The notes beneath the pieces are model-generated. The model saw only the letters and a program-made list of their open reading frames with translations. It did not search any database and was not told where the DNA came from. The translations under genes and the position numbers were made by a program. 64,000 nt of DNA from a virus: IMG/VR virus record IMGVR_UViG_3300030339_000006; one strand, given 5' to 3'. Positions 15,672-30,883 of this stretch are shown here, one piece after another. The first letter of the stretch is position 1. Each line of letters starts with the position of its first letter.

Positions 15672-15695
15672 GGTATAAGTAAGGTGTAACCAACA
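15672..15695 (+). promoter_or_regulatory. GGTATAAG motif, long form GGTATAAGTAAGGTGTAACCAAC
   Basis: Identical long form at 27943. Confidence 0.65.
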
Positions 15696-16554: not shown

Positions 16555-16773
16555 ATGAAACTGAAGCACGAAGGTCAGCAGTACGAAATCCGCCCTATTC
16601 TTCCAAAGAATAAGGATGGTTCCCAGAAGAAAGGCCGTTATGGCAAAAAGCCGGCGACAGAAATTGTCCACGCTTACTCCGCAGACGCGGCGATGAAACT
16701 GGCAGTGGTACGCGGGATTATCCCAGCGAACACACTGATGTCGTACTACGAAGCCATCCCACTTCGTAAGTAA
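16555..16773 (+). CDS. Small basic hypothetical protein
   Basis: Monocistronic between a sigma70 promoter and a terminator. Confidence 0.6.
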   Translation: MKLKHEGQQYEIRPILPKNKDGSQKKGRYGKKPATEIVHAYSADAAMKLAVVRGIIPANTLMSYYEAIPLRK

Positions 16774-16778
16774 CATTT

Positions 16779-16802
16779 GGGCCCACTTCGGTGGGCCTTT
16801 TT
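16779..16802 (+). terminator. Rho-independent terminator
   Basis: GGCCCAC-TTCG-GTGGGCC-TTTTT. Confidence 0.8.
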
Positions 16803-16851
16803 GTTTCTAGAATGTTCCAAACCTTTCCCTTATCCGTCAAGCACTTACACC

Positions 16852-17019
16852 CTTCTGTGACATTGTTACATCGGAACGTCAGAAAGTCACCCTTATTAGA
16901 GACATCTTACCCCTATACATACATTACTATGGATTCAAAATAAGGTATATATAGGATGCTACTACCCTCTAGGGACTAAAGGGGGTGTGTGTTTAGCCGC
17001 GTTGTTCCTGTCACAGAAG
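16852..17019. repeat. Dispersed non-coding element, copy 1 (candidate replication origin)
   Basis: 11-bp terminal IR CTTCTGTGACA/TGTCACAGAAG; 56-bp AT-rich core 16902-16957 identical to 51811-51866. Confidence 0.85.
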
Positions 17020-17100
17020 TTCCAATCATCCCTCGATTCCCCGGTATAACTATCATGACAAGGTATCTCACTCTGAGAGCCTACTTTATTAGGTGACATT

Positions 17101-18270
17101 ATGAATGCATTGACTCCCAAAGAGCTCCGTGGGCTGGCGGCTACCTGTGATTCTGACGTCCGCTACCTGACCACCGGACAGTTAATCGATCTGGCCGACA
17201 AGATCGAGAACCTGGAAAAGGCCCTCGTGACGCTGGCTTCCTCTCAAGCAGCGAGAGTGGACCGCGTCCAGCGAGGCCTGGCCCGCATCCTCCTTGAAGT
17301 TGACCAAAGTCTGCCGGCTGCAGAGTACACTCAAGCGGAAGTCCGCTTGGTGGTCGACGCGTTGGATCTAGAACGTAAAAAAGCCCCACCGCACGTAGCA
17401 CGTTCCTTCAGCTTCATCCGTAATGAAACACGTCGTATGAGCACAGAGCATTTCTACAGCCTCGGGGAAATGATGAACGTCTTCGAGCACTTCACCGGCG
17501 GTGGTGACTTCCGCACGATCGACAAGATTCGTGAAGCTCTGGACCACGAGCCCGGCGCCTTCCGTCCTGACGAAATGCGAATGGTCCTCATGGCACTCGA
17601 CCAAGCCAAGTCTCTGTGGCCCGAAGCACCGCGTAGCATCAGTCAGATAATGGAGGAGTGTAAGGAACACCGTCCTGTACAAACCCGCTTCTACTCACGG
17701 GAAGAGATGACCGCCGTCCTCAAGTTCTACCGAGCGTTCGACGGTAAATACACCTCTGCAGAGTCTATACGTGGTGCTCTCTTTAAAGGTGTGGCATGTT
17801 TCGGTCATGAGGAGGTGGCGGGGATTTTTCGTGAATGGGACTTGAAACTCCTGCAATTTGATGAGATCCGCACCCGCCAGTGGGATATGGACACGATCAT
17901 CGAACACCTGGAAGGGTACGACGGCTACTACTCGGCGTCCGAAATGCGTCTGATGGCCAAGGACTGGATGGCAGGCAACAAGCTGCGTGCGTGGGAAACT
18001 GACGGCGAGTGTGTCATGGAAGAAGCCCGTGAAGGGAATGACCGCTTCTACTCGCTGCAGGAAGTTCGTAACCTGTGCGATTACTACGAAGCCCGTTCTC
18101 GTATCCCTCTCATGCTCCGTACTCCAAAGACCACACTCGCGGAGATCATCGAGTTTCATAATCGTCCTTGTGGCAAAGGGATGTACTTCGAGTCGGAAGT
18201 GGCTATTCTCCTGCAGGAGATCAAGACCCGTGACCACAAGCTCTACATCATTTGCACGGCCCTGAAATGA
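17101..18270 (+). CDS. Internal-repeat protein
   Basis: About 9 copies of (F/Y)S..E(M/V)..(V/L). Confidence 0.65.
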   Translation: MNALTPKELRGLAATCDSDVRYLTTGQLIDLADKIENLEKALVTLASSQAARVDRVQRGLARILLEVDQSLPAAEYTQAEVRLVVDALDLERKKAPPHVARSFSFIRNETRRMSTEHFYSLGEMMNVFEHFTGGGDFRTIDKIREALDHEPGAFRPDEMRMVLMALDQAKSLWPEAPRSISQIMEECKEHRPVQTRFYSREEMTAVLKFYRAFDGKYTSAESIRGALFKGVACFGHEEVAGIFREWDLKLLQFDEIRTRQWDMDTIIEHLEGYDGYYSASEMRLMAKDWMAGNKLRAWETDGECVMEEAREGNDRFYSLQEVRNLCDYYEARSRIPLMLRTPKTTLAEIIEFHNRPCGKGMYFESEVAILLQEIKTRDHKLYIICTALK

Positions 18271-19944: not shown

Positions 19945-20436
19945 ATGTTAGTCATCTTGGGAAAAGCCATTGAAGAAGATAACGGGTGGTTCCGACTGCA
20001 CGATGTTTTCTTGGTAAGCGACAGACCTGACTATCTGGCACCGTCCGCGTGGGCGGTGTCACGCAGCTTTAAATTCCTTACCGATAAGCAAAAAGGGCGT
20101 GTGCGGAAAATCGGGGATTATGGTACAATCTGGGTCCGGATTGATATCATCCCGATCTACGCAAAGTGGATATCGATCCATTTCAAACGCAAAGTAGAAG
20201 AGGCGATACATGGCTATAAACTCATCAAAGCTTCGTTCGCGGGCTCCTGCTCGAGTGGCCGAAACGGTAACTCCGAAACCTCGAGTCTCGAAGGGTCCCG
20301 CGAAGCTGAAAATCAAAGACATGACGCTCGATCAGCTCTACGAACAAGAGAAGATTACCCCCAGTGTCAAGACGGCTATCTTGGAGAAAGAAGACTTCTC
20401 CCAGATCCAACCTCGCTACTGCGAGAAGGTGTGTAA
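19945..20436 (+). CDS. KilA-N-like DNA-binding protein
   Basis: F.L.D......P..W, GT.WV......YAKWIS..F; 3' end overlaps the polymerase gene. Confidence 0.55.
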   Translation: MLVILGKAIEEDNGWFRLHDVFLVSDRPDYLAPSAWAVSRSFKFLTDKQKGRVRKIGDYGTIWVRIDIIPIYAKWISIHFKRKVEEAIHGYKLIKASFAGSCSSGRNGNSETSSLEGSREAENQRHDARSALRTREDYPQCQDGYLGERRLLPDPTSLLREGV

Positions 20437-21607
20437 GTTACCCTGTGAGATGAAGCATCACAGACTGGCCGGTCAGAACTATAACCGTGCCGACGTGGTG
20501 ATCATCCAGGACCACCGTGCCGGTCCGGACGGGTGGAAGACGGCAGGGCAGGTCAATCGGTTGCAGGAGACGCAGATCCACACGCTCGCCCGCAACGCCT
20601 TCCCTGACTCTAGCTTCAAAGTGCTCAATCTGGTGAAGTGTCCGAACCTCGACGGTGACGACCCGGATACCCAGAGGAAGAAGCTGACCGCCACGCAGAT
20701 GATGTCCTGTGCACCCTATCTGTGGAGTGAGCTGCGAGAAACGAAACCGAAGGTGATCATCTCCCTGTCTACGGAGGTGACCAAGTCTCTAGGCCTGACG
20801 CAGTCGAACTACAACAACCGGGGCGAGTTCGTTTACTCTAACCTGGATGCTCTCCCTGCGACGCCGGTCGTGATCACTCTGCACCCTCGCGTGCTGAACA
20901 TGTTGCGACAGAACGCCAGCGGGAAGATGTACGGTGCGGACTACACCAGCGTCATTCAGCGGGATTTCGGCAAAGCGACACTGATCATGAAGAACCCCGT
21001 CCCAATCGGTGGCCTTCACGAACGTATCGCTCAGATCATTTCCGATCAGGTCTTTGTAACGACGACGCTGCAGGAAGTGAAGGATGCCATGGAGGATATC
21101 CTCCGACTGCCATCCACCTTCGTAATCTCCTGGGACTTGGAGACGACGAGCCTGGACCCGTGGGCGCCGGATGCCCGCATCCTGACCTGTCAGTTCGGTT
21201 ACCGTCGTCCCGACGGGAAGATCCAAGCGATCGTCATCCCACTCTGGCATCGCAATCAAACGTTCTATGATGCCGATGAAGCGTGGGCCCTGGTCGTTCC
21301 GGTGTTACTCTCCCAGTACGCCAAGGTCGGTCACAACGTGAAGTTTGACATCAAGTACTGTGCAGTCACCACCGGTGTCCGTGTGGTCAACGTGAAGTTC
21401 GACACGATGTTGATGCTCCACTCGTTGAACTCTGGGATCGTTGGGTGCTATGGCTTGAAAGCCGGTGCGTGGGATTATCTCCCGATGCTCGGCCTGGGCG
21501 GTTACGAAGAATTACTCGATGAAACACTCGACGCCGAAGAAATGAAGCGTCTCATTAAGCTTGAGAAAGGGGATACCAATGAAGATGACGAAGAATCTGA
21601 TGATTAA
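20210..21607 (+). CDS. DNA polymerase N-terminal subunit: UDG-like domain plus ExoI/ExoII of the 3'-5' exonuclease
   Basis: C..C..C, NLVKCP, SCAPYL.EL..KPKVII, TLHP (family-4 UDG fold); SWDLETT (ExoI); GHNVKFD (ExoII); FDTML; no ExoIII. Confidence 0.85.
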   Translation: MAINSSKLRSRAPARVAETVTPKPRVSKGPAKLKIKDMTLDQLYEQEKITPSVKTAILEKEDFSQIQPRYCEKVCKLPCEMKHHRLAGQNYNRADVVIIQDHRAGPDGWKTAGQVNRLQETQIHTLARNAFPDSSFKVLNLVKCPNLDGDDPDTQRKKLTATQMMSCAPYLWSELRETKPKVIISLSTEVTKSLGLTQSNYNNRGEFVYSNLDALPATPVVITLHPRVLNMLRQNASGKMYGADYTSVIQRDFGKATLIMKNPVPIGGLHERIAQIISDQVFVTTTLQEVKDAMEDILRLPSTFVISWDLETTSLDPWAPDARILTCQFGYRRPDGKIQAIVIPLWHRNQTFYDADEAWALVVPVLLSQYAKVGHNVKFDIKYCAVTTGVRVVNVKFDTMLMLHSLNSGIVGCYGLKAGAWDYLPMLGLGGYEELLDETLDAEEMKRLIKLEKGDTNEDDEESDD

Positions 21608-22214
21608 CGGCCGTTCCATCCGCTACGACCGCGGGTGTTATTGCTTGGAAGATATGTATAACGCTTACTTCTGCCCGCCTCCTAAGATACGGGTCTGGGT
21701 TGAGCAACAGGGTATTAAGGATCGCGTAGTGTGCAAGGGATTCATGATCAAGACCACCTGGGCTGCCCTTCCGGACGTGATCGCGTACGCGGACCACCTG
21801 GGCATCGGTGACTCTGTCCGTAAGCAATTCGGCATGAAGACGCTGGCAGAACAGAAGGCAGAGCGGGAACGCGTTAATGTAGTGACTCGTCGAGAAACGC
21901 AGCGGGACACCCCTCCTGACGACCCACTGTTGAACGCAGCGATGTTTGGTGTCATTCTGAACGATCCAAGTCCGGTTCGTATCATCCAAAATGACCCTAT
22001 CCCGACGCATCGTCACGATAACCACAGCACCAATCATCGTGATACCGACTTCAGCCGTCACTCCGCCAGCGAGACGTATAGCTCTAAAGGTTACGAGTCT
22101 CACTCGAATCACAACCACGGGTCTAGCCATTCCCATGACCACAGCTCCCACTCCAGTCACGACCACGGGTCTAGCTACGACAGCTCTTCCCCTTCAGGTG
22201 GAGATTCATGGTAA
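21579..22214 (+). CDS. KilA-N-like protein with His/Ser-rich tail
   Basis: INGRSIR...YCLEDM, TWA..DVIAYA; C-terminal HSNHNHGSSHSHDHSSH. Confidence 0.55.
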   Translation: MKMTKNLMINGRSIRYDRGCYCLEDMYNAYFCPPPKIRVWVEQQGIKDRVVCKGFMIKTTWAALPDVIAYADHLGIGDSVRKQFGMKTLAEQKAERERVNVVTRRETQRDTPPDDPLLNAAMFGVILNDPSPVRIIQNDPIPTHRHDNHSTNHRDTDFSRHSASETYSSKGYESHSNHNHGSSHSHDHSSHSSHDHGSSYDSSSPSGGDSW

Positions 22215-22534
22215 GACTGTGGGAGATCTTCCTCGGTTGGTATCATCTCAACGATGATCGTAACCTTCTCGAAGAGATGATCATGTGGTATGCCCTAAAG
22301 CGTAAGCCGATACGGTGTGTACCCATTGTCGTTAACGGGACGGTCATCTACACGTTGATCGCTTCGGATCTCCGTCACCACCCGCGAGTTGTCTGCCGCT
22401 CGCGGAGTGTCTACGGGTCGTTCTTGAAGTTCAGTGAGATCGATGCCTTCGTCGTGGGCGGGAAGCGTTACCCCGCTCGATTACTTCCCCTTTATATCAA
22501 AGTGGGTCTCTATCGTGTATCCAGAGAACTATAA
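22208..22534 (+). CDS. Hypothetical protein
   Basis: GGAG RBS. Confidence 0.45.
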   Translation: MVRLWEIFLGWYHLNDDRNLLEEMIMWYALKRKPIRCVPIVVNGTVIYTLIASDLRHHPRVVCRSRSVYGSFLKFSEIDAFVVGGKRYPARLLPLYIKVGLYRVSREL

Positions 22535-23249
22535 GGGTCACCCGCAGCTCGTCAAGGACGACGAGAACGGTCTACCCCTACTCGAACTCGGTAAGTTTTA
22601 CAAAAAGATTGCTTCCACACACCTCAGTGAAGACAATTGGTGTCTGAAGCAAACCTGGCAGCGTCACCCCCCGTTCCTTTTCATCGGCCGAGATCCCGGT
22701 AGCAGCAAGCAATGCTATCCCGGACTATCGGAATCATCATTCCCCTCGATGTTTCCGTACTTCGGCTTTTGCTGTCACTGGTTTGGTAAACGCTATTCTG
22801 ACCACCAAGCCAACTACATCCTGGAACTCTTGCCAGAGGAACAGGAAATCTTCACCCGGTTCTACAAACGGATCAACCAAGACCGTCACCCGAACGACTT
22901 CAAAGCGGAAAGGGTGAAGTCTCGTGAGGATGGTAAACCCGATCTGAAACCCGGAGAGATCTACTTCGTCAGAAGTACCGGTAACTGCAAAGGTCCAACG
23001 GGCTATCAAAGGGCCTCCCTGAGAGGGGACTCGATTTGGCTGTCTGAGCTCACCTGGTATAAGATAGGCGGCCACAATTTTGCAGGTAGCTACGTGACTT
23101 TTGATGGTGATCATGAAGTCTACCGTCCTCCACTATGGGTTCGCCACGCGTACCACCATCTGGCTAAAGATCTTCTGGCAGCAAACACCCCACACAAACT
23201 TAGCTGGGCCTACTACAAGGTATGGTCCTTTGAGGAAGGAAAGTTATGA
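22434..23249 (+). CDS. Hypothetical protein (true start probably further downstream)
   Basis: Long ORF, ATGA-coupled to the next gene. Confidence 0.5.
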   Translation: MRSMPSSWAGSVTPLDYFPFISKWVSIVYPENYKGHPQLVKDDENGLPLLELGKFYKKIASTHLSEDNWCLKQTWQRHPPFLFIGRDPGSSKQCYPGLSESSFPSMFPYFGFCCHWFGKRYSDHQANYILELLPEEQEIFTRFYKRINQDRHPNDFKAERVKSREDGKPDLKPGEIYFVRSTGNCKGPTGYQRASLRGDSIWLSELTWYKIGGHNFAGSYVTFDGDHEVYRPPLWVRHAYHHLAKDLLAANTPHKLSWAYYKVWSFEEGKL

Positions 23250-23836
23250 AATTCTTAATGCCTGTTGAAGTTGCAGTCAATCTAATCACCGAGGTGCGGG
23301 ACGGGGAGTTCTCCATCGGTGGACCCCGCATCAAGTGGACGGGGGATACCCCTTCGGTAGGGGATTACCTCGTGACCGGCGACGGTGTCTATGAAGTGTG
23401 GACCGAGAAGTGCTTCGATGCGAATAAAGCTTCGATGATAGCATCCTTCGGTCCCGGTTTGACCCTGGATGATGAAGGCTGGAAGGCTCCGTATCTCGAG
23501 CTGAGGGCGATCGATCGGGAAACCGCTATCGACTACTTGGACGGGGATATCCCGCTCGAATATACCCTCCTCAAGGATACCGGCTGGGAAGATGAAGGCA
23601 AGCAGGATATCCGTGCCATCTACCTCCGCCACGATAACACCAACAGTAATTTCATTCTGGCCTACTCCCGTGAGGGTGATCCGTGGTCTGGCTACCGGAC
23701 GACCTTCGACGGCGTCGGTATGGTTGCCGCAGTGCCGAAAGTCACCTATGACTTCGAAGAATACTCCGGTTGGGACGTTCGTATTCAGAGCCTGGTCAAT
23801 CCAGGACCGGAGGTACCGCCATGCAAACCCGAGTAG
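23246..23836 (+). CDS. Hypothetical protein
   Basis: GAGG RBS; P.VGDYLV..DG.Y motif. Confidence 0.55.
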   Translation: MKFLMPVEVAVNLITEVRDGEFSIGGPRIKWTGDTPSVGDYLVTGDGVYEVWTEKCFDANKASMIASFGPGLTLDDEGWKAPYLELRAIDRETAIDYLDGDIPLEYTLLKDTGWEDEGKQDIRAIYLRHDNTNSNFILAYSREGDPWSGYRTTFDGVGMVAAVPKVTYDFEEYSGWDVRIQSLVNPGPEVPPCKPE

Positions 23837-24099
23837 TCAATAAGTTCAAAGAACCCTACGGGGTATACATCGGTCGAGGCTCGGAATGGGGTAATCCATT
23901 TACCGTTGAAGATCACGGCCGGGAAGAGGCCATTCGTTTATACGAAAAGTATATGCGGGAGCGTCTCTCCAAAGAACCCGGCTTGGTTATCCAGCTGCTC
24001 AAACTCCGAGGCAAAGTTCTCGGGTGTTTCTGCCATCCTAAACCCTGCCATGGTGACGTACTGATTACCTTAATCGAGGAATACTATGCGGTATCGTAG
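23821..24099 (+). CDS. DUF4326 protein
   Basis: VYIGRGSEWGNPF, LRGKVLGCFCHPKPCHGDVL. Confidence 0.85.
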   Translation: MQTRVVNKFKEPYGVYIGRGSEWGNPFTVEDHGREEAIRLYEKYMRERLSKEPGLVIQLLKLRGKVLGCFCHPKPCHGDVLITLIEEYYAVS

Positions 24100-24301
24100 A
24101 GTAACGCGGATTGATGCCGACGGGACTTACGGCAGCCAGTATTACTTCGAAGATCTGGAAGAACTGCCCGAAGGTTACAAACTGGCTACGATCGGTCCGA
24201 TGGAAATCGGTGACATCGAAGAGCAGGGCGACCACGGTTACTTTATGGGGATTTATCGTCATGTTGACCGCAATAAAGTGGTGAAAAAAGAAGACAACTA
24301 G
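24086..24301 (+). CDS. Hypothetical protein
   Basis: GAGG RBS. Confidence 0.5.
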   Translation: MRYRRVTRIDADGTYGSQYYFEDLEELPEGYKLATIGPMEIGDIEEQGDHGYFMGIYRHVDRNKVVKKEDN

Positions 24302-24363
24302 TCTATACTCAATGGGTGTTCGGAGGTCCGACGCCCCTTTACCTCGCTTAGGAGAGCCTTGCG

Positions 24364-25590
24364 ATGAAGAAATTAGCAGTCATTATCGGCCGTATGCAGT
24401 TCCTGCACAATGGTCACACCCACCTGTTCCGTGAAGCGCTGAAACGTGCTGAGAACGTCCTCGTCCTGATCGGTTCCGCCGATAAAGCCCCAGACCCAAA
24501 GAATCCGTTCTCGTACGCTCAACGTGAAGCGATCGTGCACAAAGTCTTCAGTGACATGCCCGGTAGCCCAACCGTTTGGGTTGCTCCACTGCCCGATCAC
24601 TACCTGGATGAAGTCTGGGCGTCCGGCGTCATGCAGGCCGTCGAGCGTTACTCGCTGGACTCCATGCCGGAGACCGGCTACTTGGTTCGCGATGAAGATG
24701 TCGTTCTGGTCGGTCACGAGAAGGATGAATCTTCGTACTACCTGAAGATGTTCCCACAGTGGGACTTCTACAACGCTCCGAATGAACGTAACCTGTCGGC
24801 CACCGATTTCCGTCACGACCTATTCGCCCGCATCCCAGCTATCGATATTGGTTTCCCTGCTCGTCTCCGCGTGATGATGGAGCAGTTCGACAAGAAGGAC
24901 GCCGGTTCGTTCACCAGTGACGTGATCCGACTGTTGACCGAGAAGTATCCGACCCTGGGGATTCACTTTATTCCGAACACCAACGCCCGTGCTCTGATGG
25001 AACCGTTGGACATGACCCACCTGAAGCTGAACTCGCCGCCGGCCATGCATGAATTCGTTGAGATGTACATCCACTCGCCGGAATACCAAGCGATGCTCGG
25101 TGAGCAGAACGGTTACGACACCAACAAGCTCACCTGGGATATGGCCCCGTACGAAAACATCTTCGTGACTACTGACGCCGTCGTGACCCACAAGTCTTCT
25201 ATCCTGATGATTCGCCGTAAGAACTCTCCGGGCCGTGGCCTGTGGGCGTTACCTGGCGGGTTCCTGGGGCCGAAGCAGTGGATCCGCGATTCCATCATCC
25301 GTGAACTCCGTGAGGAAACCCGAATTGCCGTCCCTAATGAAGATCTTCTGCGAATCATGCAACCGATTCAAGTCTTCGATAACCCGTCTCGATCACTGCG
25401 TGGCCGCACCATTACGCATGCTGCTCGCTTTAATCTCGATCACCTGGGCATTGAACGTCCGAAAGTCCGGGCCGACGATGATGCCGACGCCGTTCGCTGG
25501 TTCTCCTTCGCGGAAATCCAACGGGCCGACGCCGAACTCTTCGAAGATCACGCTGAAATCATCAAACGTCTGGTCTTCTCCCGTGGCTAA
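24364..25590 (+). CDS. nadM: Bifunctional NMN adenylyltransferase / ADP-ribose pyrophosphatase (NadM-Nudix, NatV-like)
   Basis: IGRMQFLHNGH, GSA...KNPF, GH.KD.SSYYL, SATD.R; Nudix box WALPGGF...RELREET; FEDH. Confidence 0.93.
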   Translation: MKKLAVIIGRMQFLHNGHTHLFREALKRAENVLVLIGSADKAPDPKNPFSYAQREAIVHKVFSDMPGSPTVWVAPLPDHYLDEVWASGVMQAVERYSLDSMPETGYLVRDEDVVLVGHEKDESSYYLKMFPQWDFYNAPNERNLSATDFRHDLFARIPAIDIGFPARLRVMMEQFDKKDAGSFTSDVIRLLTEKYPTLGIHFIPNTNARALMEPLDMTHLKLNSPPAMHEFVEMYIHSPEYQAMLGEQNGYDTNKLTWDMAPYENIFVTTDAVVTHKSSILMIRRKNSPGRGLWALPGGFLGPKQWIRDSIIRELREETRIAVPNEDLLRIMQPIQVFDNPSRSLRGRTITHAARFNLDHLGIERPKVRADDDADAVRWFSFAEIQRADAELFEDHAEIIKRLVFSRG

Positions 25591-25831
25591 TAACTTCCGG
25601 AAGGGTCGCTTGGCTTTTCACTGTGATAACTACCCGGAGGATAACCCCTACGTCGCGGGGACTCCAGAGGCACAGGAGTGGGATGACGGGTGGTTGGATG
25701 CTTACGACGATTACTCAGAAGCTCGAGCCATGCAGCATGACACCTTCGGTCAGTCCGCTGCCATCACAATCTTCGGGGTGCTGGCAGTATTGGCTATCGG
25801 AGCGATCTATGTTTCACTTAAGGGGGCTTGA
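25583..25831 (+). CDS. Rmf/CrpP-like domain fused to a C-terminal transmembrane helix
   Basis: F.KG..A.......NPY........W..GW..A; GTG start overlapping the nadM stop. Confidence 0.5.
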   Translation: MANNFRKGRLAFHCDNYPEDNPYVAGTPEAQEWDDGWLDAYDDYSEARAMQHDTFGQSAAITIFGVLAVLAIGAIYVSLKGA

Positions 25832-26328
25832 TGTATAAGTACATAATCGGTGCTCTCGGGGCCGGCGTGATCATGGCCCTGATGTACAACTGGGGTTACT
25901 CCAGCGGTGCAGACTCGGTGAAGACGAAGAATCTCACCACCACCGTCGTTCAAACTGGGGAAGCCCGGAAGATCGAACAGGGGATTGTCGCCAAGCAATC
26001 CGACCTCGACCTTAACTATCAGAAAGGTGCAATCGATGCCAGTAAAAGTACGCAAGTGCTCGTGGATTCTCTGCTTAATGGTTCTGTCCGGATGTCAGTC
26101 CCAAGTCCTGCCGCCACCACCGTGCCCGGTGATACCACCTCCACCAGCAAGCGTCATGATCAAACGTCCTGCGAACTTCCAGGAAAGACTGCAGCAGATC
26201 TTGCCCGTCTCGCAGCTGACGCTGACGCAAACACTCGACAACTCGGTCTCTGCCAAGACGTCATCGATGCCTACCAAGCCTTGATGCCGAAGTGGGCTGC
26301 TCCACAAACGACGCATTTAGCACCGTAA
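25831..26328 (+). CDS. Rz: Inner-membrane spanin (Rz)
   Basis: N-terminal TM, coiled coil, G..R.SV, EL...A..L..L...D....QL..CQ. Confidence 0.8.
   Translation: MYKYIIGALGAGVIMALMYNWGYSSGADSVKTKNLTTTVVQTGEARKIEQGIVAKQSDLDLNYQKGAIDASKSTQVLVDSLLNGSVRMSVPSPAATTVPGDTTSTSKRHDQTSCELPGKTAADLARLAADADANTRQLGLCQDVIDAYQALMPKWAAPQTTHLAP
26036..26284 (+). CDS. Rz1: Outer-membrane lipoprotein spanin (Rz1), embedded in Rz in the +1 frame
   Basis: Signal peptide with lipobox LSGC, Pro-rich PPPPCPVIPPPP; AAAGGT RBS. Confidence 0.8.
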   Translation: MPVKVRKCSWILCLMVLSGCQSQVLPPPPCPVIPPPPASVMIKRPANFQERLQQILPVSQLTLTQTLDNSVSAKTSSMPTKP

Positions 26329-26431
26329 AGTATCATATATGAACCTTTAGGGGTCAAAAGGGCCCCTAAAGGTCTAGATAATGTCTTTTAACGATAGAAA
26401 GTGTCAGAGATGACACTTTTGAGGATAAATT

Positions 26432-27928
26432 ATGCAATTCAGTCACGTTCAGAAAGTCCGTAATTCCGCCCGCGTCCGCGTTGAGACGAATGGCCAGCCG
26501 AACCACACCCACCGCATCTTCGGGGACTATAACTTCAACCCTCTGGTCTGGATGGACGGTTACAAGTACTCGCAGTTCCCACAGTACCCAGAAGGGATGG
26601 AGCACCTGCTGTCCTACGTTGAGGCCCGTACCGGTGCCAAGCACAATAAGATTCCTTTCTTCCTGCAGCCTTTCCTGAAGGAGTATCTAACCCGTCCGTT
26701 GACGCACGCCCACATCGACTACATGATCCCGTTCCTGAAACGCTACGGAGCGATGTTCAATGAAGCCGGCTACCGTCGTGTCGTTGATGAGTTCGGTGGA
26801 CGCTGGCCGGTCGAAATCAAATGCCTCCCAGAAGGCTTTGTAACGAAGGCTGGCACGCCTCAGCTCTACGTTGAGGAAACCCACCCAGACTTCGCGTGGC
26901 TCGTCTCTCCGTTCGAAACAGCCATGCTCCGTGCGGTCTGGTACATGGCGTCCGTCGGTGCCATCGCGATCAACATGTACGACATCCTTCGGAAATCCCT
27001 GGTCGAAACGTCCGATCTGGAAGGTGAAGAGCTGGAAGCCGTTCTGGCTTACATGTTGAATGACTTCGGTGCCCGCGGTGCGACGGGCCATGAAGGTGCA
27101 ACACTCGGCGGGATGGCTCCGCTTCTGGTGGGCTTTAAAGGTTCGGATACCACGGAAGCCGTCCATGGCCTGAGCATCTACTACCACAACACTCCTGGTG
27201 TTGGCGGCGGGACCATCGCTGCGTCTGAACACTCTACGGCCACGGCCTTCGGTCTGGAACCGGAAGAGGAAATCGCCTTCAACAACCACATGATCGAGCA
27301 ATTCGGTGACCTGCCGATCTTCGCTTCTGTGATTGACTCAGTAGACTCTGGTCGTAACGTGGAGTATCACTGGGGTGCGGCTAACCTTGACCGCGTCATG
27401 GCGATGAAGGCCCGCTTGGTCCTCCGTCCGGATTCCGGCGTGCCGGAAGAAGAGATCGTGAAGATTCTGGAATTGCTCTGGAAACGCTTCAGTGGTGATC
27501 TGAACTCCAAGGGTAAACGCGTTCTGAATCCGAAGGTCCGTGTGATCTACGGTGACGGCATCGACGAAGAGAGCATCCTGCGTATCATCACTGCCGTCAA
27601 GGGCGCCGGCTTCTCCATGGAGAACGTGGCATTCGGGATGGGCGGTGGGCTGCTTCAAGCGGTTACCCGTGACTGGGAGCGTTACGCGATGAAGGCCTGT
27701 GAAATCGACACCGGTACCGGCAAGCGTCCGATCGGCAAGAAGCCGGCTACTGACCCAACGAAGACCAGCAAGTTCGGCCCTCGCTGGTTGTACCTGAATG
27801 AGTTCGGCGAAGTACTCGTTTACAGCCAACCGGTGGTGGGTTGTGCCGAGTTGATGTCCGTTCGTTACCGTAATGGCCTTCTTCTGGAAGACTACACGGC
27901 CGATGAAGTGATCTCCCTGGTTCGATAA
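26432..27928 (+). CDS. nadV: Nicotinamide phosphoribosyltransferase
   Basis: DGYKYSQ..QYP, NDFGARG, F.GSDT, AASEHS, LRPDSG, VIYGDGI, FGMGGGLLQ. Confidence 0.93.
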   Translation: MQFSHVQKVRNSARVRVETNGQPNHTHRIFGDYNFNPLVWMDGYKYSQFPQYPEGMEHLLSYVEARTGAKHNKIPFFLQPFLKEYLTRPLTHAHIDYMIPFLKRYGAMFNEAGYRRVVDEFGGRWPVEIKCLPEGFVTKAGTPQLYVEETHPDFAWLVSPFETAMLRAVWYMASVGAIAINMYDILRKSLVETSDLEGEELEAVLAYMLNDFGARGATGHEGATLGGMAPLLVGFKGSDTTEAVHGLSIYYHNTPGVGGGTIAASEHSTATAFGLEPEEEIAFNNHMIEQFGDLPIFASVIDSVDSGRNVEYHWGAANLDRVMAMKARLVLRPDSGVPEEEIVKILELLWKRFSGDLNSKGKRVLNPKVRVIYGDGIDEESILRIITAVKGAGFSMENVAFGMGGGLLQAVTRDWERYAMKACEIDTGTGKRPIGKKPATDPTKTSKFGPRWLYLNEFGEVLVYSQPVVGCAELMSVRYRNGLLLEDYTADEVISLVR

Positions 27929-27942
27929 AGTTAAGTTCCTGG

Positions 27943-27965
27943 GGTATAAGTAAGGTGTAACCAAC
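27943..27965 (+). promoter_or_regulatory. GGTATAAG motif, long form
   Basis: GGTATAAGTAAGGTGTAACCAAC, as at 15672. Confidence 0.65.
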
Positions 27966-27981
27966 CCACAGGAACTTTTCC

Positions 27982-28842
27982 ATGATCACTAAATTGCTCC
28001 AACTGACCGACAAAGATGCTTACTCCAGCTGGGTTGAATTCAACGTTGGGTATCTGCATCAGATCCAAGTGTATCTGGCGGATAAGGCCCCGCCGGATAT
28101 GTTCATCAAGAATATCCTGGCCAAAGACGAAGTCGATCGCTTTAAGTATTCCGTTGCGAAGACTCCACCGAAGCTGCACACGTCACTCTTGAAAGTGGTG
28201 AACGAGCGTATCTTCTACGGGACGAAGGAGCGGAGTATCGTGAACGGCGTCCTGACTTACATGTCATTGACCGGTAAGCCAGACCTCGAGTACATCAACA
28301 GTAAACTGGCTCCGCTCCAAGAACTCCATCAGAACCTGACCGGGCTCGAAGCGGGAAAGGATGCGGTAACGGTCTTCTCGAAGCTGGTCTACAACCGTTC
28401 TCGTATTATGCATCTTCTCTTCGGCGACGGCATGTCTCCGGAAGAGTACGAAACGAAAACGTATCTAAACGAAACGGTACCGGCACTCAACGTGGCAGAA
28501 GCGCTCTGTAAGGTCTCCGGTATTCACCACGCACTTCGCTCTATGTCGTCACAGGCGTTGACCTGTTCTGACACCGAGTTAGGTGCTATGATACGGGATA
28601 TCTCAGAAGCGATGATCTCCTATCGGAAATCTCTGATCGACCCTGAAAAGGCCGGTCTCGGAGATATCGATATGGGTGCTGCGGAGTTGGAATTGGTGAC
28701 TCGCTCACCGTCTCCGGCTGCCGGCAACAATCTGAAGTACGTGATCGAGAAATACAGTTCCGTAGAATCCTTTACTCCGACAGACTTCCTGCTCTGTTTG
28801 AATGAAGGTGTTAGACTGTCAGGCATCGACCTGATGGTATAA
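27982..28842 (+). CDS. Hypothetical protein
   Basis: Long ORF with AGGA RBS. Confidence 0.65.
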   Translation: MITKLLQLTDKDAYSSWVEFNVGYLHQIQVYLADKAPPDMFIKNILAKDEVDRFKYSVAKTPPKLHTSLLKVVNERIFYGTKERSIVNGVLTYMSLTGKPDLEYINSKLAPLQELHQNLTGLEAGKDAVTVFSKLVYNRSRIMHLLFGDGMSPEEYETKTYLNETVPALNVAEALCKVSGIHHALRSMSSQALTCSDTELGAMIRDISEAMISYRKSLIDPEKAGLGDIDMGAAELELVTRSPSPAAGNNLKYVIEKYSSVESFTPTDFLLCLNEGVRLSGIDLMV

Positions 28843-28843
28843 G
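28836..28843 (+). promoter_or_regulatory. GGTATAAG phage promoter-like motif
   Basis: Overlaps the upstream TAA; directly before the polymerase C-half gene. Confidence 0.6.
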
Positions 28844-28845
28844 AC

Positions 28846-28866
28846 AAAGCCCTTCGGGGCTTTTTT
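28846..28866 (+). terminator. Rho-independent terminator
   Basis: AAAGCCC-TTCG-GGGCTTTTTT. Confidence 0.7.
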
Positions 28867-28876
28867 AGGAGACTAA

Positions 28877-30442
28877 ATGGCGAAGTTACGAAAGCCTTCA
28901 AATTTTACCTATGAGTGGTATGACTATCAAACACTCAACGCTTACGCCGGCGTTGACTGTATTGTGACGTCGGAGCTCATGGCGGCGTTAATGCCAACCC
29001 TGGCCGCCAAGAACCCCTTTGCGTGGTATCATCAGGGCGTCCGTTCGGTATCGCCGGCACCGTCAGTACTCCAGGAACAGCTGGAGGTGAAATCCCGTGC
29101 GTTAGAGTTCATCTGCGACATGGAGATTGCCGGGATGGCCTATGACATTCAGGGTAACCGGGCGATGGACAACCGCATGATCGAGGATATCGCGGCCACC
29201 GAGGATCAGATCTTCTCGGCGATCGGGAAGCGAATCGACCTGTCCTCCTCGTCGGTACTCAAGGAATTTCTCTACGGCGAGAAGGGCTTCACTGCACCAA
29301 TTCAGACCAAGCACGGGGATGATTCTACCTCTGGGGATGCTCTGGAGGCGTTGTACAAAGAGCACGAGCTGCAGTGGCTCAAGGATATCAAGAAGCGTAA
29401 CGACGTGACGTCGATGCACGGTTCGTTCATCAAGACGTACGTGGCGGATTGGGTTAAGCACGACGGCCGGGTGCATCCCCAATACAACCTGCACGGGACC
29501 AGTTCCCACCGCATCTCCTCACAGGATCCGAACTTACTGAACCTGCCTCGCGGCTACTACAACTATAATATCCGTCGGTTGTACACGTCGAGTAAGGGGA
29601 TGGTGTTTTTAACCTTCGACTTCTCCTCCTGTGAAGTGAAGATCTTGGCAGCCCTGTCTGGCGACGAGACGATGATCGAGGCCTGTGTCTCCGGTAAGGA
29701 CTTCCACTCCTATACCGCCTCGATGATTTACCACGTCGAGTACGATGACTTCGTGGCGATCGTCAAGGATCACAAGCATCCCGATCATAAGCGTTATAAG
29801 GATTACCGTCAGGGCGCTAAGTCGGTGACTTTCGGTCTGCTCTACGGTGCGACGGTCAACTCGATCGCTCGTGACCTAGGTGTGACCGTTGGAGAGGCTC
29901 AAGAAATCGTTGATGCGTACTTCAAACTCTACCCACGGGTGCAGGCGTTCATCTCGGATTGCCACAAGATGGCCGAAGCGAATCAGTTCATCATCACTCC
30001 GTTCGGTCAACGCAAAATGGAATATGGCACGCTGCCAATGTTCAAAGGCTCCGCTGCGTTCAATGCCGCCAAACGAAATGCTCAGAACGTGAGTATCCAG
30101 TCGCCGGCGTCAACGCTCGGTCTGATCGTGTTCACCGAAATGAACCGCCGTATGAAGGAACTGGGTGGGCAGTGCATCTGTACCGTATACGACTCCATCG
30201 AGATCGAAGTACCGATCGCCCGTCTGGCGGAGGCCATCAACACTGGCTTCTACGTAATGGACGATTGGCCACAGGAGCAGTTTGACTGGCTGAACTTCCC
30301 AATCGGCTCTGACGGTGAAATCGGTTGGAACTGGGGCGACGTGGAGCCGGTTAAGAAAGGCATCACCCAGGCAGAAGCGATCGCTATCCTGGCAGAATGT
30401 GATGCTGGGAAGCTGGCCGAGGCTCTACAAATGGCCGCTTAA
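28877..30442 (+). CDS. polA: Family A DNA polymerase C-terminal subunit (ExoIII plus polymerase domain)
   Basis: YAGVD (ExoIII), RISSQDPNLLNLPR, DFSSCE (motif A), RQGAKSVTFGLLYG (motif B), TVYDSI (motif C). Confidence 0.93.
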   Translation: MAKLRKPSNFTYEWYDYQTLNAYAGVDCIVTSELMAALMPTLAAKNPFAWYHQGVRSVSPAPSVLQEQLEVKSRALEFICDMEIAGMAYDIQGNRAMDNRMIEDIAATEDQIFSAIGKRIDLSSSSVLKEFLYGEKGFTAPIQTKHGDDSTSGDALEALYKEHELQWLKDIKKRNDVTSMHGSFIKTYVADWVKHDGRVHPQYNLHGTSSHRISSQDPNLLNLPRGYYNYNIRRLYTSSKGMVFLTFDFSSCEVKILAALSGDETMIEACVSGKDFHSYTASMIYHVEYDDFVAIVKDHKHPDHKRYKDYRQGAKSVTFGLLYGATVNSIARDLGVTVGEAQEIVDAYFKLYPRVQAFISDCHKMAEANQFIITPFGQRKMEYGTLPMFKGSAAFNAAKRNAQNVSIQSPASTLGLIVFTEMNRRMKELGGQCICTVYDSIEIEVPIARLAEAINTGFYVMDDWPQEQFDWLNFPIGSDGEIGWNWGDVEPVKKGITQAEAIAILAECDAGKLAEALQMAA

Positions 30443-30444
30443 CT

Positions 30445-30452
30445 GGTATAAG
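30445..30452 (+). promoter_or_regulatory. GGTATAAG phage promoter-like motif
   Basis: Intergenic; followed by AATAGTGTAAACC. Confidence 0.6.
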
Positions 30453-30502
30453 AATAGTGTAAACCCGAGGGCTTCGGCCCTCTTCACTATTTAGGAGTCA
30501 CC

Positions 30503-30883
30503 ATGTTTCGCGAAATATCTAAAACTTTACTCATCAACCTTATTGCCCGAATCACCGAGCAGCAAACCAAAGATCCCGCGGCACGGTTTGCTTACTTCCA
30601 CACTCTTAACCAACATCGGCAAGCACGCCTTAATACCCTCAATCAGGAAGGTACTAATGAACTTGACCAGGTGAATATCTTCCTGGACATGTTTGAGCCG
30701 AAAGATCGTCATCCTGCCGCCAACATCATGTTCCATAACGCCATCAGCTTCTTAGGGAGTTCAGAGTCGTATCAGCTGGATATCCACTTGAAGCAACGCC
30801 CGTGGTATCAGTACCCCGAGGTCATGGCTATCACCGTAACCCTTCCTGACAACCAAACTCAAACCTTCGAGCGTGACGCATGA
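30503..30883 (+). CDS. Hypothetical protein
   Basis: AGGAG RBS. Confidence 0.6.
   Translation: MFREISKTLLINLIARITEQQTKDPAARFAYFHTLNQHRQARLNTLNQEGTNELDQVNIFLDMFEPKDRHPAANIMFHNAISFLGSSESYQLDIHLKQRPWYQYPEVMAITVTLPDNQTQTFERDA

Follow-up and report, generated by a model that had tools for sequence, protein, structure and literature searches.

A DNA polymerase probably made of two subunits

Two distant genes of a phage represented in the IMG/VR database probably encode the subunits of a single DNA polymerase. The window analysed here, a stretch of 64,000 nucleotides, is part of IMG/VR record IMGVR_UViG_3300030339_000006, a 176-kb phage record that is rated complete by CheckV. The two genes, designated the N-half (20210-21607) and the C-half (28877-30442), are open reading frames (ORFs) on the plus strand, as are all features of the window described below, and lie exactly where an earlier reading of the letters without database searches (the sequence-only reading) had placed them. 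We consider them, with a probability of roughly 85% and on the strength of sequence comparison and structural models, to be two subunits of one replicative family A DNA polymerase (PolA) of the SPO1-like kind fused to a uracil-DNA glycosylase (UDG), with a composite proofreading site. A two-subunit PolA whose exonuclease site is built from both proteins had already been proposed in the sequence-only reading, and it is supported by the invariant exonuclease motifs I, II and III (Exo I, Exo II and Exo III), by purifying selection, by the lack of other polymerase pieces and by the predicted packing of the halves.

DNA of the window is present in many peat-metagenome sequencing runs. The nearest isolate is Salmonella phage Arash, with about 76% nucleotide identity over alignable parts, and the next-nearest are Vibrio phages D69, D181 and D148, with 43-54% amino-acid identity. 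The whole genome contains one match to PF00476 and one partial match to PF01612, and no family B polymerase (PolB) match was found in this complete-rated genome; the two half-genes are therefore the only recognisable DNA polymerase of the phage.

According to the proposed scheme, an ancestral fused gene would have been cut in the linker between Exo II and Exo III. The UDG-like domain would come from the N-half, along with the exonuclease's beta-sheet core and the Exo I and Exo II metal ligands; the C-half would provide the last exonuclease helices with the Tyr and Asp of Exo III together with the whole polymerase domain, and the proofreading site would exist in the heterodimer only. A short helical segment in the tail of the N-half is predicted to add contacts with the C-half, and the acidic end behind it to stay free. 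Fission would at first have left two overlapping, translationally coupled cistrons. Later, in a subgroup of Arash-like phages, 7-9 kb of accessory genes, including a pair for NAD salvage, would have come to lie between the halves, each of which now has its own ribosome-binding site.

Domain content of the two halves

The N-half encodes 465 amino acids comprising a UDG-like domain, Exo I and Exo II of a 3'-5' exonuclease, and a tail. The C-half encodes 521 amino acids, beginning with the last exonuclease helices, which carry Exo III, and continuing with the thumb, palm and fingers. This layout, obtained from the translated ORFs and Pfam, bears out the sequence-only reading, in which the UDG-like domain, Exo I and Exo II had been assigned to the N-half and Exo III and polymerase motifs A to C to the C-half.

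The N-half matches the Pfam UDG family PF03167 with 27 bits (cut-off 24.3) and DNA_pol_A_exo1, PF01612, with 41 bits, the latter only over profile positions 4-108 of 173. The UDG-like domain, of family 4, occupies about residues 71-246 (20420-20947) as judged by NCBIfam, a PDB profile search and invariant columns. The NCBIfam family Arch_udg spans residues 71-228, with NCBIfam scores far under the cut-offs. In the PDB profile search the family-4 UDG 4zbx was matched with an E value of 6.7e-11, and the alignment displays the motifs. The best Foldseek match is the UDG-PolA of phage phiLo (9qhs), and family-4 UDGs and the Klenow exonuclease are matched as well; template modelling (TM) scores relative to the target are 0.54-0.65 against UdgX and family-4 UDGs. 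A UDG fold is thus recognised by Pfam, PDB profiles and Foldseek. Its catalytic motif A has diverged, QDH(R/K)A (QDHRA in the window) replacing GEAPG. In motif B, His225-Pro226 is retained, and His225 is nearly invariant among 45 N-halves. Four Cys residues of the domain are near-invariant (C71, C75, C144 and C167), and two of them align with cysteines of 4zbx, which suggests that an iron-sulfur cluster has been retained.

Exo I (D309-L-E311, 21134-21142) is invariant in the 45 N-halves and aligns with the Exo I block of Klenow, and Exo II (H375 to D380, 21332-21349), with H375 and D380 invariant in the same set, aligns with that of Klenow. An AlphaFold2 model of the N-half alone has a mean predicted local distance difference test score (pLDDT) of 87.6.

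The C-half matches PF00476 with 215.6 bits (cut-off 34.3) over profile positions 6-381 of 381, and Taq and Klenow polymerases are matched in the PDB profile search with E values of 1e-59 to 1e-68. Exo III (Y23-A-G-V-D27, 28943-28957) has Y23 and D27 invariant in 45 C-halves. Polymerase motifs A (residues 248-257), B (311-324) and C (437-442) are located within 29618-30202, and D248, E253, R311, K315, F319, D439, S440 and E442 are invariant across the same C-halves, Y323 being nearly so. The C-half therefore has both the full-length domain and the motif A, B and C residues of a family A polymerase. Motif C (30185-30202) has the form YDS, with Y438, D439 and S440 invariant in the clade, in place of the HDE of Pol I and T7. 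The three motifs that characterise a DEDDy exonuclease on one polypeptide, Exo I (DxE), Exo II (NxxxD) and Exo III (YxxxD), are all there, but divided over two chains.

An old and clean break point

The two halves are consecutive pieces of one enzyme with no part lost, since on the profile of PHROG family 17 the N-half covers positions 519-786 and the C-half positions 795-1251. The cut is situated about 56 residues past the Asp of Exo II and 22 residues ahead of the Tyr of Exo III. In the window, Arash and D69, the N-halves stop shortly after a conserved GGYE motif, behind which comes an acidic tail, and the C-halves begin a few residues ahead of the Exo III motif. D181 and D148 gave near-identical matches to D69, which was the one inspected. 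A check of the split point in relatives had been called for in the sequence-only reading, and an identical break point is found in Arash, Vibrio phage D69 and the IMG/VR loci L004-L008 and L014-L022.

In database searches, N-halves (400-470 amino acids) fall into more than 120 clusters at 90% identity and C-halves (500-600 amino acids) into a similar number, often on the same contigs, which are up to 202 kb long. In an exhaustive search, about 35 clusters at 50% identity had E values below 1e-55, nearly all of them of N-half length. Related loci surfaced when an alignment was used as the query; a single N-half protein as the query gave none. The halves co-occur on every locus that extends far enough downstream.

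A quick maximum-likelihood tree sets the split clade apart from ordinary fused UDG-PolA enzymes, with a Shimodaira-Hasegawa-like approximate likelihood ratio test (SH-aLRT) value of 100. Two fused proteins belong to the clade, P0143 (858 amino acids; L011-L013) and P0146 (717 amino acids), each consisting of UDG, exonuclease and polymerase. P0143 is 38-41% identical to both halves; the N-half aligns up to its residue 376 or so and the C-half from residue 379, indicating that the cut is a clean break in a short linker.

In comparison with the close relative L057, the ratio of nonsynonymous to synonymous substitution rates (dN/dS) amounts to 0.093 in the N-half gene and 0.036 in the C-half gene, within the range of neighbouring metabolic genes. 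Both halves are under strong purifying selection. Gp168 of Arash, the homologue of the N-half, has been detected by mass spectrometry (PMC10585845).

Arrangement of the halves in relatives

The halves are adjacent genes in seven IMG/VR relatives (L014-L018, L021 and L022; 43-48% identity), and in every case the frame of the C-half is that of the N-half shifted by +1. Start and stop of the halves overlap in at least L015-L017 and L021; in L015, L017 and L021 the start of the C-half overlaps the stop of the N-half by 11 nucleotides. Adjacency, the +1 frame and the overlap point to a gene fission that left translationally coupled cistrons. The spacing is wider elsewhere: one unrelated ORF of 186 amino acids lies between the halves in D69, 1.3 kb in L019, and 7.3-9 kb in the Arash-like subgroup, which consists of the window, L057 (its closest relative), Arash, L004, L006 and L008. 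The fission is old and was initially between adjacent genes, and the wide spacing is a later trait of the Arash-like subgroup. The sequence-only reading, which described a polymerase split into genes 7.3 kb apart, thus gave the distance in the window correctly but not the history, in which neighbouring genes were separated only afterwards.

No HNH, GIY-YIG or LAGLIDADG family was found in eight of the approximately 11 intervening ORFs of the window, in the D69 spacer ORF or in the L019 spacer ORFs. The adjacent-gene relatives have no spacer at the junction and hence no homing-endonuclease insert there. A conserved third subunit encoded between the halves was also considered and ruled out, because the D69 spacer ORF has no detectable relation (12% identity) to the ORF located behind the N-half in the window and in Arash.

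Predicted complex and the acidic tail

A prediction of the complex, proposed in the sequence-only reading as a check, was made from both whole chains with 45-row alignments. The score was 0.89, against 0.00 for the best of three controls, and is to be read as resemblance to the intact enzyme rather than as binding. Among solved complexes 58 of 80 attain this score, and among mismatched pairs 2 of 110 do so; both counts are only rough, because our own alignments were used. The prediction runs share at least 93% of their contacts, with a partner pLDDT of 81 or more. In the predicted complex, residues 3-42 of the C-half pack on residues 305-452 of the N-half. The best-defined contacts join the Exo III helix of the C-half (residues 21-38) to N-half residues 281, 307, 338-342, 373-375 and 399-402, next to Exo I and Exo II, and additional predicted contacts involve C-half residues 64-84 and N-half residues 432-452.

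The C-terminal tail of the N-half (residues 437-465, 21518-21604) appears from secondary structure and pLDDT to contain two short helices followed by a disordered acidic end. The helices (433-439 and 442-453) are of moderate confidence, and the helical part may act as an added latch on the C-half. Residues 454-465 have pLDDT values below 50 and are not among the interface residues, so that the predicted interface is independent of the acidic end. Behind GGYE the tail has a net negative charge in 37 of 38 N-halves (median length 26 residues, median charge -7), and it is missing at the corresponding place in the fused P0143; these comparisons show it to be a genuine new feature, conserved among the split forms. 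The head of the C-half, taken from C-halves of 500-530 amino acids, has a median of four residues before the conserved block and a median charge of +1, and is positive in 22 of 40; longer Lys-rich heads exist in L014-L016. The acidic tail noted in the sequence-only reading is therefore general and the basic head opposite it is not, and docking of the halves by complementary charge finds no support, the head being so short and weakly charged and the end of the tail lying outside the interface with low confidence.

Points against a two-subunit enzyme

Several observations weigh against the two-subunit reading. For all members of the clade the heterodimer is a prediction from sequences and models. 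The complex score may stem from a memory of intact polymerases, since structures of intact family A enzymes have been solved. The model leaves the acidic tail unplaced, although no other new feature of the split forms is as conserved. The fused proteins P0143 and P0146 nest within the split clade on the tree, their subclade having an SH-aLRT value of 99, so that the history involves either one fission and a re-fusion or repeated fission. Finally, it is uncertain where the N-half gene truly begins, given the low confidence of residues 1-30 in the model (pLDDT below 50 for residues 1-13) and the overlap of the gene with a conserved upstream ORF.

Expression signals and subunit ratio

The motif GGTATAAG occurs at 15 sites in the window (for example at 15672, 27943, 30445, 45217 and 53151), all on the plus strand, against 0.8 expected. 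Most copies lie 20-60 nucleotides ahead of start codons, and the motif is often lengthened to GGTATAAGtaaGGTGTAAcc. Four copies precede a GC hairpin with a T-run, followed by a ribosome-binding site. GGTATAAG is probably a phage promoter element with 5' leader hairpins. The leader of the C-half (28836-28872) has this structure, with GGTATAAG at 28836-28843, a hairpin and T-run at 28846-28866 and the ribosome-binding site AGGAGA at 28867-28872.

These signals allow an addition to the two-subunit reading, in which the halves heterodimerise and separate signals let the phage vary the amount of the proofreading and UDG-like subunit, and hence fidelity or base discrimination. Each half has its own ribosome-binding site in the window, a promoter-like motif and hairpin stand before the C-half, and a spacing of 7-9 kb has been maintained in six Arash-like genomes. 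However, none of the five Arash-like relatives examined (L057, Arash, L004, L006 and L008) has a counterpart of the GGTATAAG copy at 28836, whose role as a conserved private promoter of the C-half was accordingly rejected; the leader hairpin, T-run and AGGAGA are retained in L057 and L004. The copy nearest to the N-half is 267 nucleotides upstream and stands ahead of another ORF (19945). Separate promoters are thus not a conserved trait of the halves. Of the ribosome-binding site and upstream motif attributed to each half in the sequence-only reading, the former is present at both, whereas the latter lies close ahead of the C-half only. Most members of the clade have cistrons whose stop and start overlap, an arrangement favouring production of the halves in equal amounts. 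Together with the non-conserved promoters, this disfavours ratio tuning as the reason for the split, and the suggestion of the sequence-only reading that proofreading could be tuned by subunit ratio finds no support. Moreover, polymerase domains of PolA reportedly need the exonuclease domain for stability (PMC10201439), so that a free C-half may be non-functional. Such tuning is considered unlikely.

A similarly doubtful proposal is that the UDG-like domain, as a sensor, and the exonuclease core form a detachable editing module, whose acidic tail would dock on a replisome protein or on the DNA-binding surface of the polymerase. If true, proofreading and base surveillance could be loaded, unloaded or exchanged during infection, and fidelity would be regulated rather than fixed.

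Other explanations of the split genes

It is somewhat less likely again that the halves act separately, the N-half as a stand-alone UDG-like or exonuclease protein and the C-half as a polymerase lacking an exonuclease. In favour of this are the distance of 7.3 kb between the genes, the high confidence with which the N-half model folds alone, and the existence of PolA enzymes lacking an exonuclease, for example Taq and CCPol (PMC10201439). Such an enzyme would have no need of Tyr23 and Asp27, however, which are invariant in the 45 C-half sequences, and the N-half has neither Exo III nor the last exonuclease helices, its PF01612 match ending at position 108 of 173. The constant company of the two halves, wherever a locus extends far enough downstream, also argues against separate functions, and the predicted interface corresponds to the interior of one domain.

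Joining of the halves at a later stage, by trans-splicing, a split intein, ribosomal frameshifting or bypassing, is very improbable. Group I introns are present in this polymerase in relatives, and the constant +1 frame of the C-half in adjacent-gene relatives makes a programmed +1 shift conceivable there, but 7.3 kb cannot be bridged by frameshifting and eleven conserved or expressed-looking genes of the same strand intervene. No Rfam intron was found in the window at the gathering score, nor in 21300-29200 at E values up to 1. The search works, as it detects a group I intron (RF00028, 58.9 bits) inside motif B of the polymerase of Arash (OQ632216; locus L001, 12218-12489). No intein or Hint family was found in the Pfam search of the halves; the tail of the N-half is 29 amino acids long, acidic or helical, the head of the C-half has six, and there are no Cys, Ser or Thr junction residues. 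The statement in the sequence-only reading that no intein or intron is visible is in agreement with these searches.

Interruptions of the polymerase gene are recurrent in the relatives. D69 is interrupted at the same residue as Arash, with small HNH-like ORFs, and several metagenomic relatives at or near residue 319/320. The interrupted loci include L003 (about 16733-17250), L004 (20395-21072), L018, L021 and L022, L021 being interrupted additionally near residue 220. The C-half of the window is uninterrupted.

An assembly error or a decaying gene, conceivable for a window that stems from metagenome assembly and named in the sequence-only reading among the findings that would speak against a heterodimer, is the least probable explanation of all, because the same arrangement is present in the Arash isolate genome, three Vibrio phage isolates and many independent assemblies, because 20000-30600 is covered colinearly by contigs from four other peat-metagenome runs, which span the N-half 3' end and the C-half 5' end, with no joined form or joints seen in them, and because dN/dS is low (0.04-0.09) and the catalytic residues are invariant.

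Comparison with known split and fused polymerases

Split replicative polymerases have already been published, both as split PolB and as T7-like split PolA, and the UDG-fused split PolA extends them. The closest case is the split PolA of T7-like cyanophages such as S-SBP1, which has likewise undergone fission into an exonuclease-bearing and a polymerase protein; its two genes are overlapping neighbours that differ in frame where they meet, and the complex predicted by AlphaFold matches the intact enzyme (PMC10201439). That enzyme belongs to the T7-like subfamily, which has no UDG domain, whereas the one in the window belongs to another PolA subfamily. The cut in the window is inside the exonuclease domain and leaves Exo I and Exo II on a different chain from Exo III. 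In further contrast to the S-SBP1 type, the clade of the window is large and old, its N-halves carry a conserved acidic tail, and in one subgroup the genes are 7-9 kb apart. Czernecki et al. (2023; PMC10201439) reported the split T7-like PolA and described UDG-fused PolAs only as single chains. No literature on a split UDG-fused PolA was found, only on the T7-like split, in a search whose coverage is thin for subscription journals, so that absence is unproven.

Fused UDG-PolA enzymes, namely those of SPO1-like phages, of the SP15-like phages phiLo (9qhs) and YerA41 (PMC13697223) and of N4-like phages (PMC10201439), have the same order of UDG-like domain, 3'-5' exonuclease and polymerase. By tblastn, SPO1-like Bacillus phage polymerases are 20-26% identical. 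All of these are single polypeptides, and split forms of them are mentioned neither in the 2026 study of phiLo and YerA41 (PMC13697223) nor in PMC10201439. The SPO1- and SP15-like enzymes keep the UDG catalytic motifs, whereas motif A of the N-half has diverged, and the large inserts of the SP15 type are absent from the polymerase of the window.

Two split PolB enzymes differ from the present one in family and cut site. DNAP-N and DNAP-C of phiKZ are two proteins in a 1:1 complex (PMC13648687). The other is gp43A/gp43B of Aeromonas phages 25 and 44RR; in phage 25 the two proteins co-purify and are active, and a homing-endonuclease gene or an untranslated spacer lies between the halves (PMC2988022). 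CCPol-MP of staphylococcal elements has a PolA with the last three exonuclease helices, which are predicted to hold its partner (PMC10201439), and the C-half of the window keeps about the same piece. The partner MP, however, is an unrelated beta-barrel with which no proofreading site is rebuilt, whereas in the window the partner would be the missing exonuclease part. Genes split by homing endonucleases, such as nrdA of phage Aeh1 and T4 genes 39/60 (PMC2988022), likewise encode an essential enzyme in two polypeptides that reassemble; unlike these, the halves have no homing endonuclease between them in the window or the relatives examined, and the ancestral junction had no insert.

If the two-subunit reading is right, the single published split of a family A polymerase would gain a counterpart in the UDG-fused subfamily, with the cut falling within the exonuclease domain and with genes that are no longer neighbours. 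It would also provide a natural DEDDy proofreading site made from two polypeptides, which selection has maintained in a large, diverse group of phages of 165-200 kb. Annotation pipelines label the N-half 'uracil-DNA glycosylase' and the C-half as a eukaryote-type polymerase. In the Arash record the N-half is a 'uracil DNA glycosylase' and pieces of the C-half are 'DNA polymerase nu', a hypothetical protein and 'DNA polymerase theta', and the split is not mentioned in the Arash paper (PMC10585845). Phage phylogenies based on polymerases and marker-gene surveys consequently mis-score such phages. Because Arash can be cultivated, both the proposed two-subunit enzyme and the function of its acidic tail are directly testable.

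Intervening and upstream genes

About 11 ORFs on the plus strand (21579-28842) were counted between the halves from the ORF list, Pfam, PHROG and tblastn against relatives, close to the dozen estimated in the sequence-only reading. By tblastn, five of the insert genes are kept in Arash-like relatives, namely those for a protein of 108 amino acids, an NMN adenylyltransferase with a Nudix domain, an Rz-like protein, a nicotinamide phosphoribosyltransferase (NAMPT) and a protein of 286 amino acids, and the others are variable. The NMN adenylyltransferase-Nudix gene (24364-25590; PF01467, PF00293, phrog_395) and the NAMPT gene (26432-27928; PF04095, PF18127, phrog_448 with E 4.5e-110) form an NAD+ salvage pair, which is 64-69% identical in all Arash-like relatives examined. 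Rz-like spanin matches (PF03245 with 28.7 bits, phrog_1327) are found at 25828-26328, amid replication and metabolism genes and with no obvious lysis cassette nearby. The ORF behind the N-half overlaps the N-half stop in the +1 frame, which is the frame held by the C-half in other lineages. This ORF (21579-22214), for which no family match was found, ends in a long low-complexity tail rich in His, Ser and Asp, as does its Arash counterpart gp167.

Upstream of the N-half, a conserved ORF (19945-20436) has a weak KilA-N match of 22.3 bits, just under the cut-off. N-terminal extensions of two longer N-halves, P0122 and P0032, were considered as fusions with this ORF, and no similarity was found. 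The ORF is unannotated by gene callers and in the Arash record; a BLASTP comparison with the annotated gp169 of Arash gave no match, the actual Arash counterpart being unannotated. It extends 227 nucleotides into the N-half gene in a different frame, the N-half start codon lying within the overlap, and in L057, L004 and Arash its frame stays open as far as nearly the same position, despite indels, which come in multiples of three.

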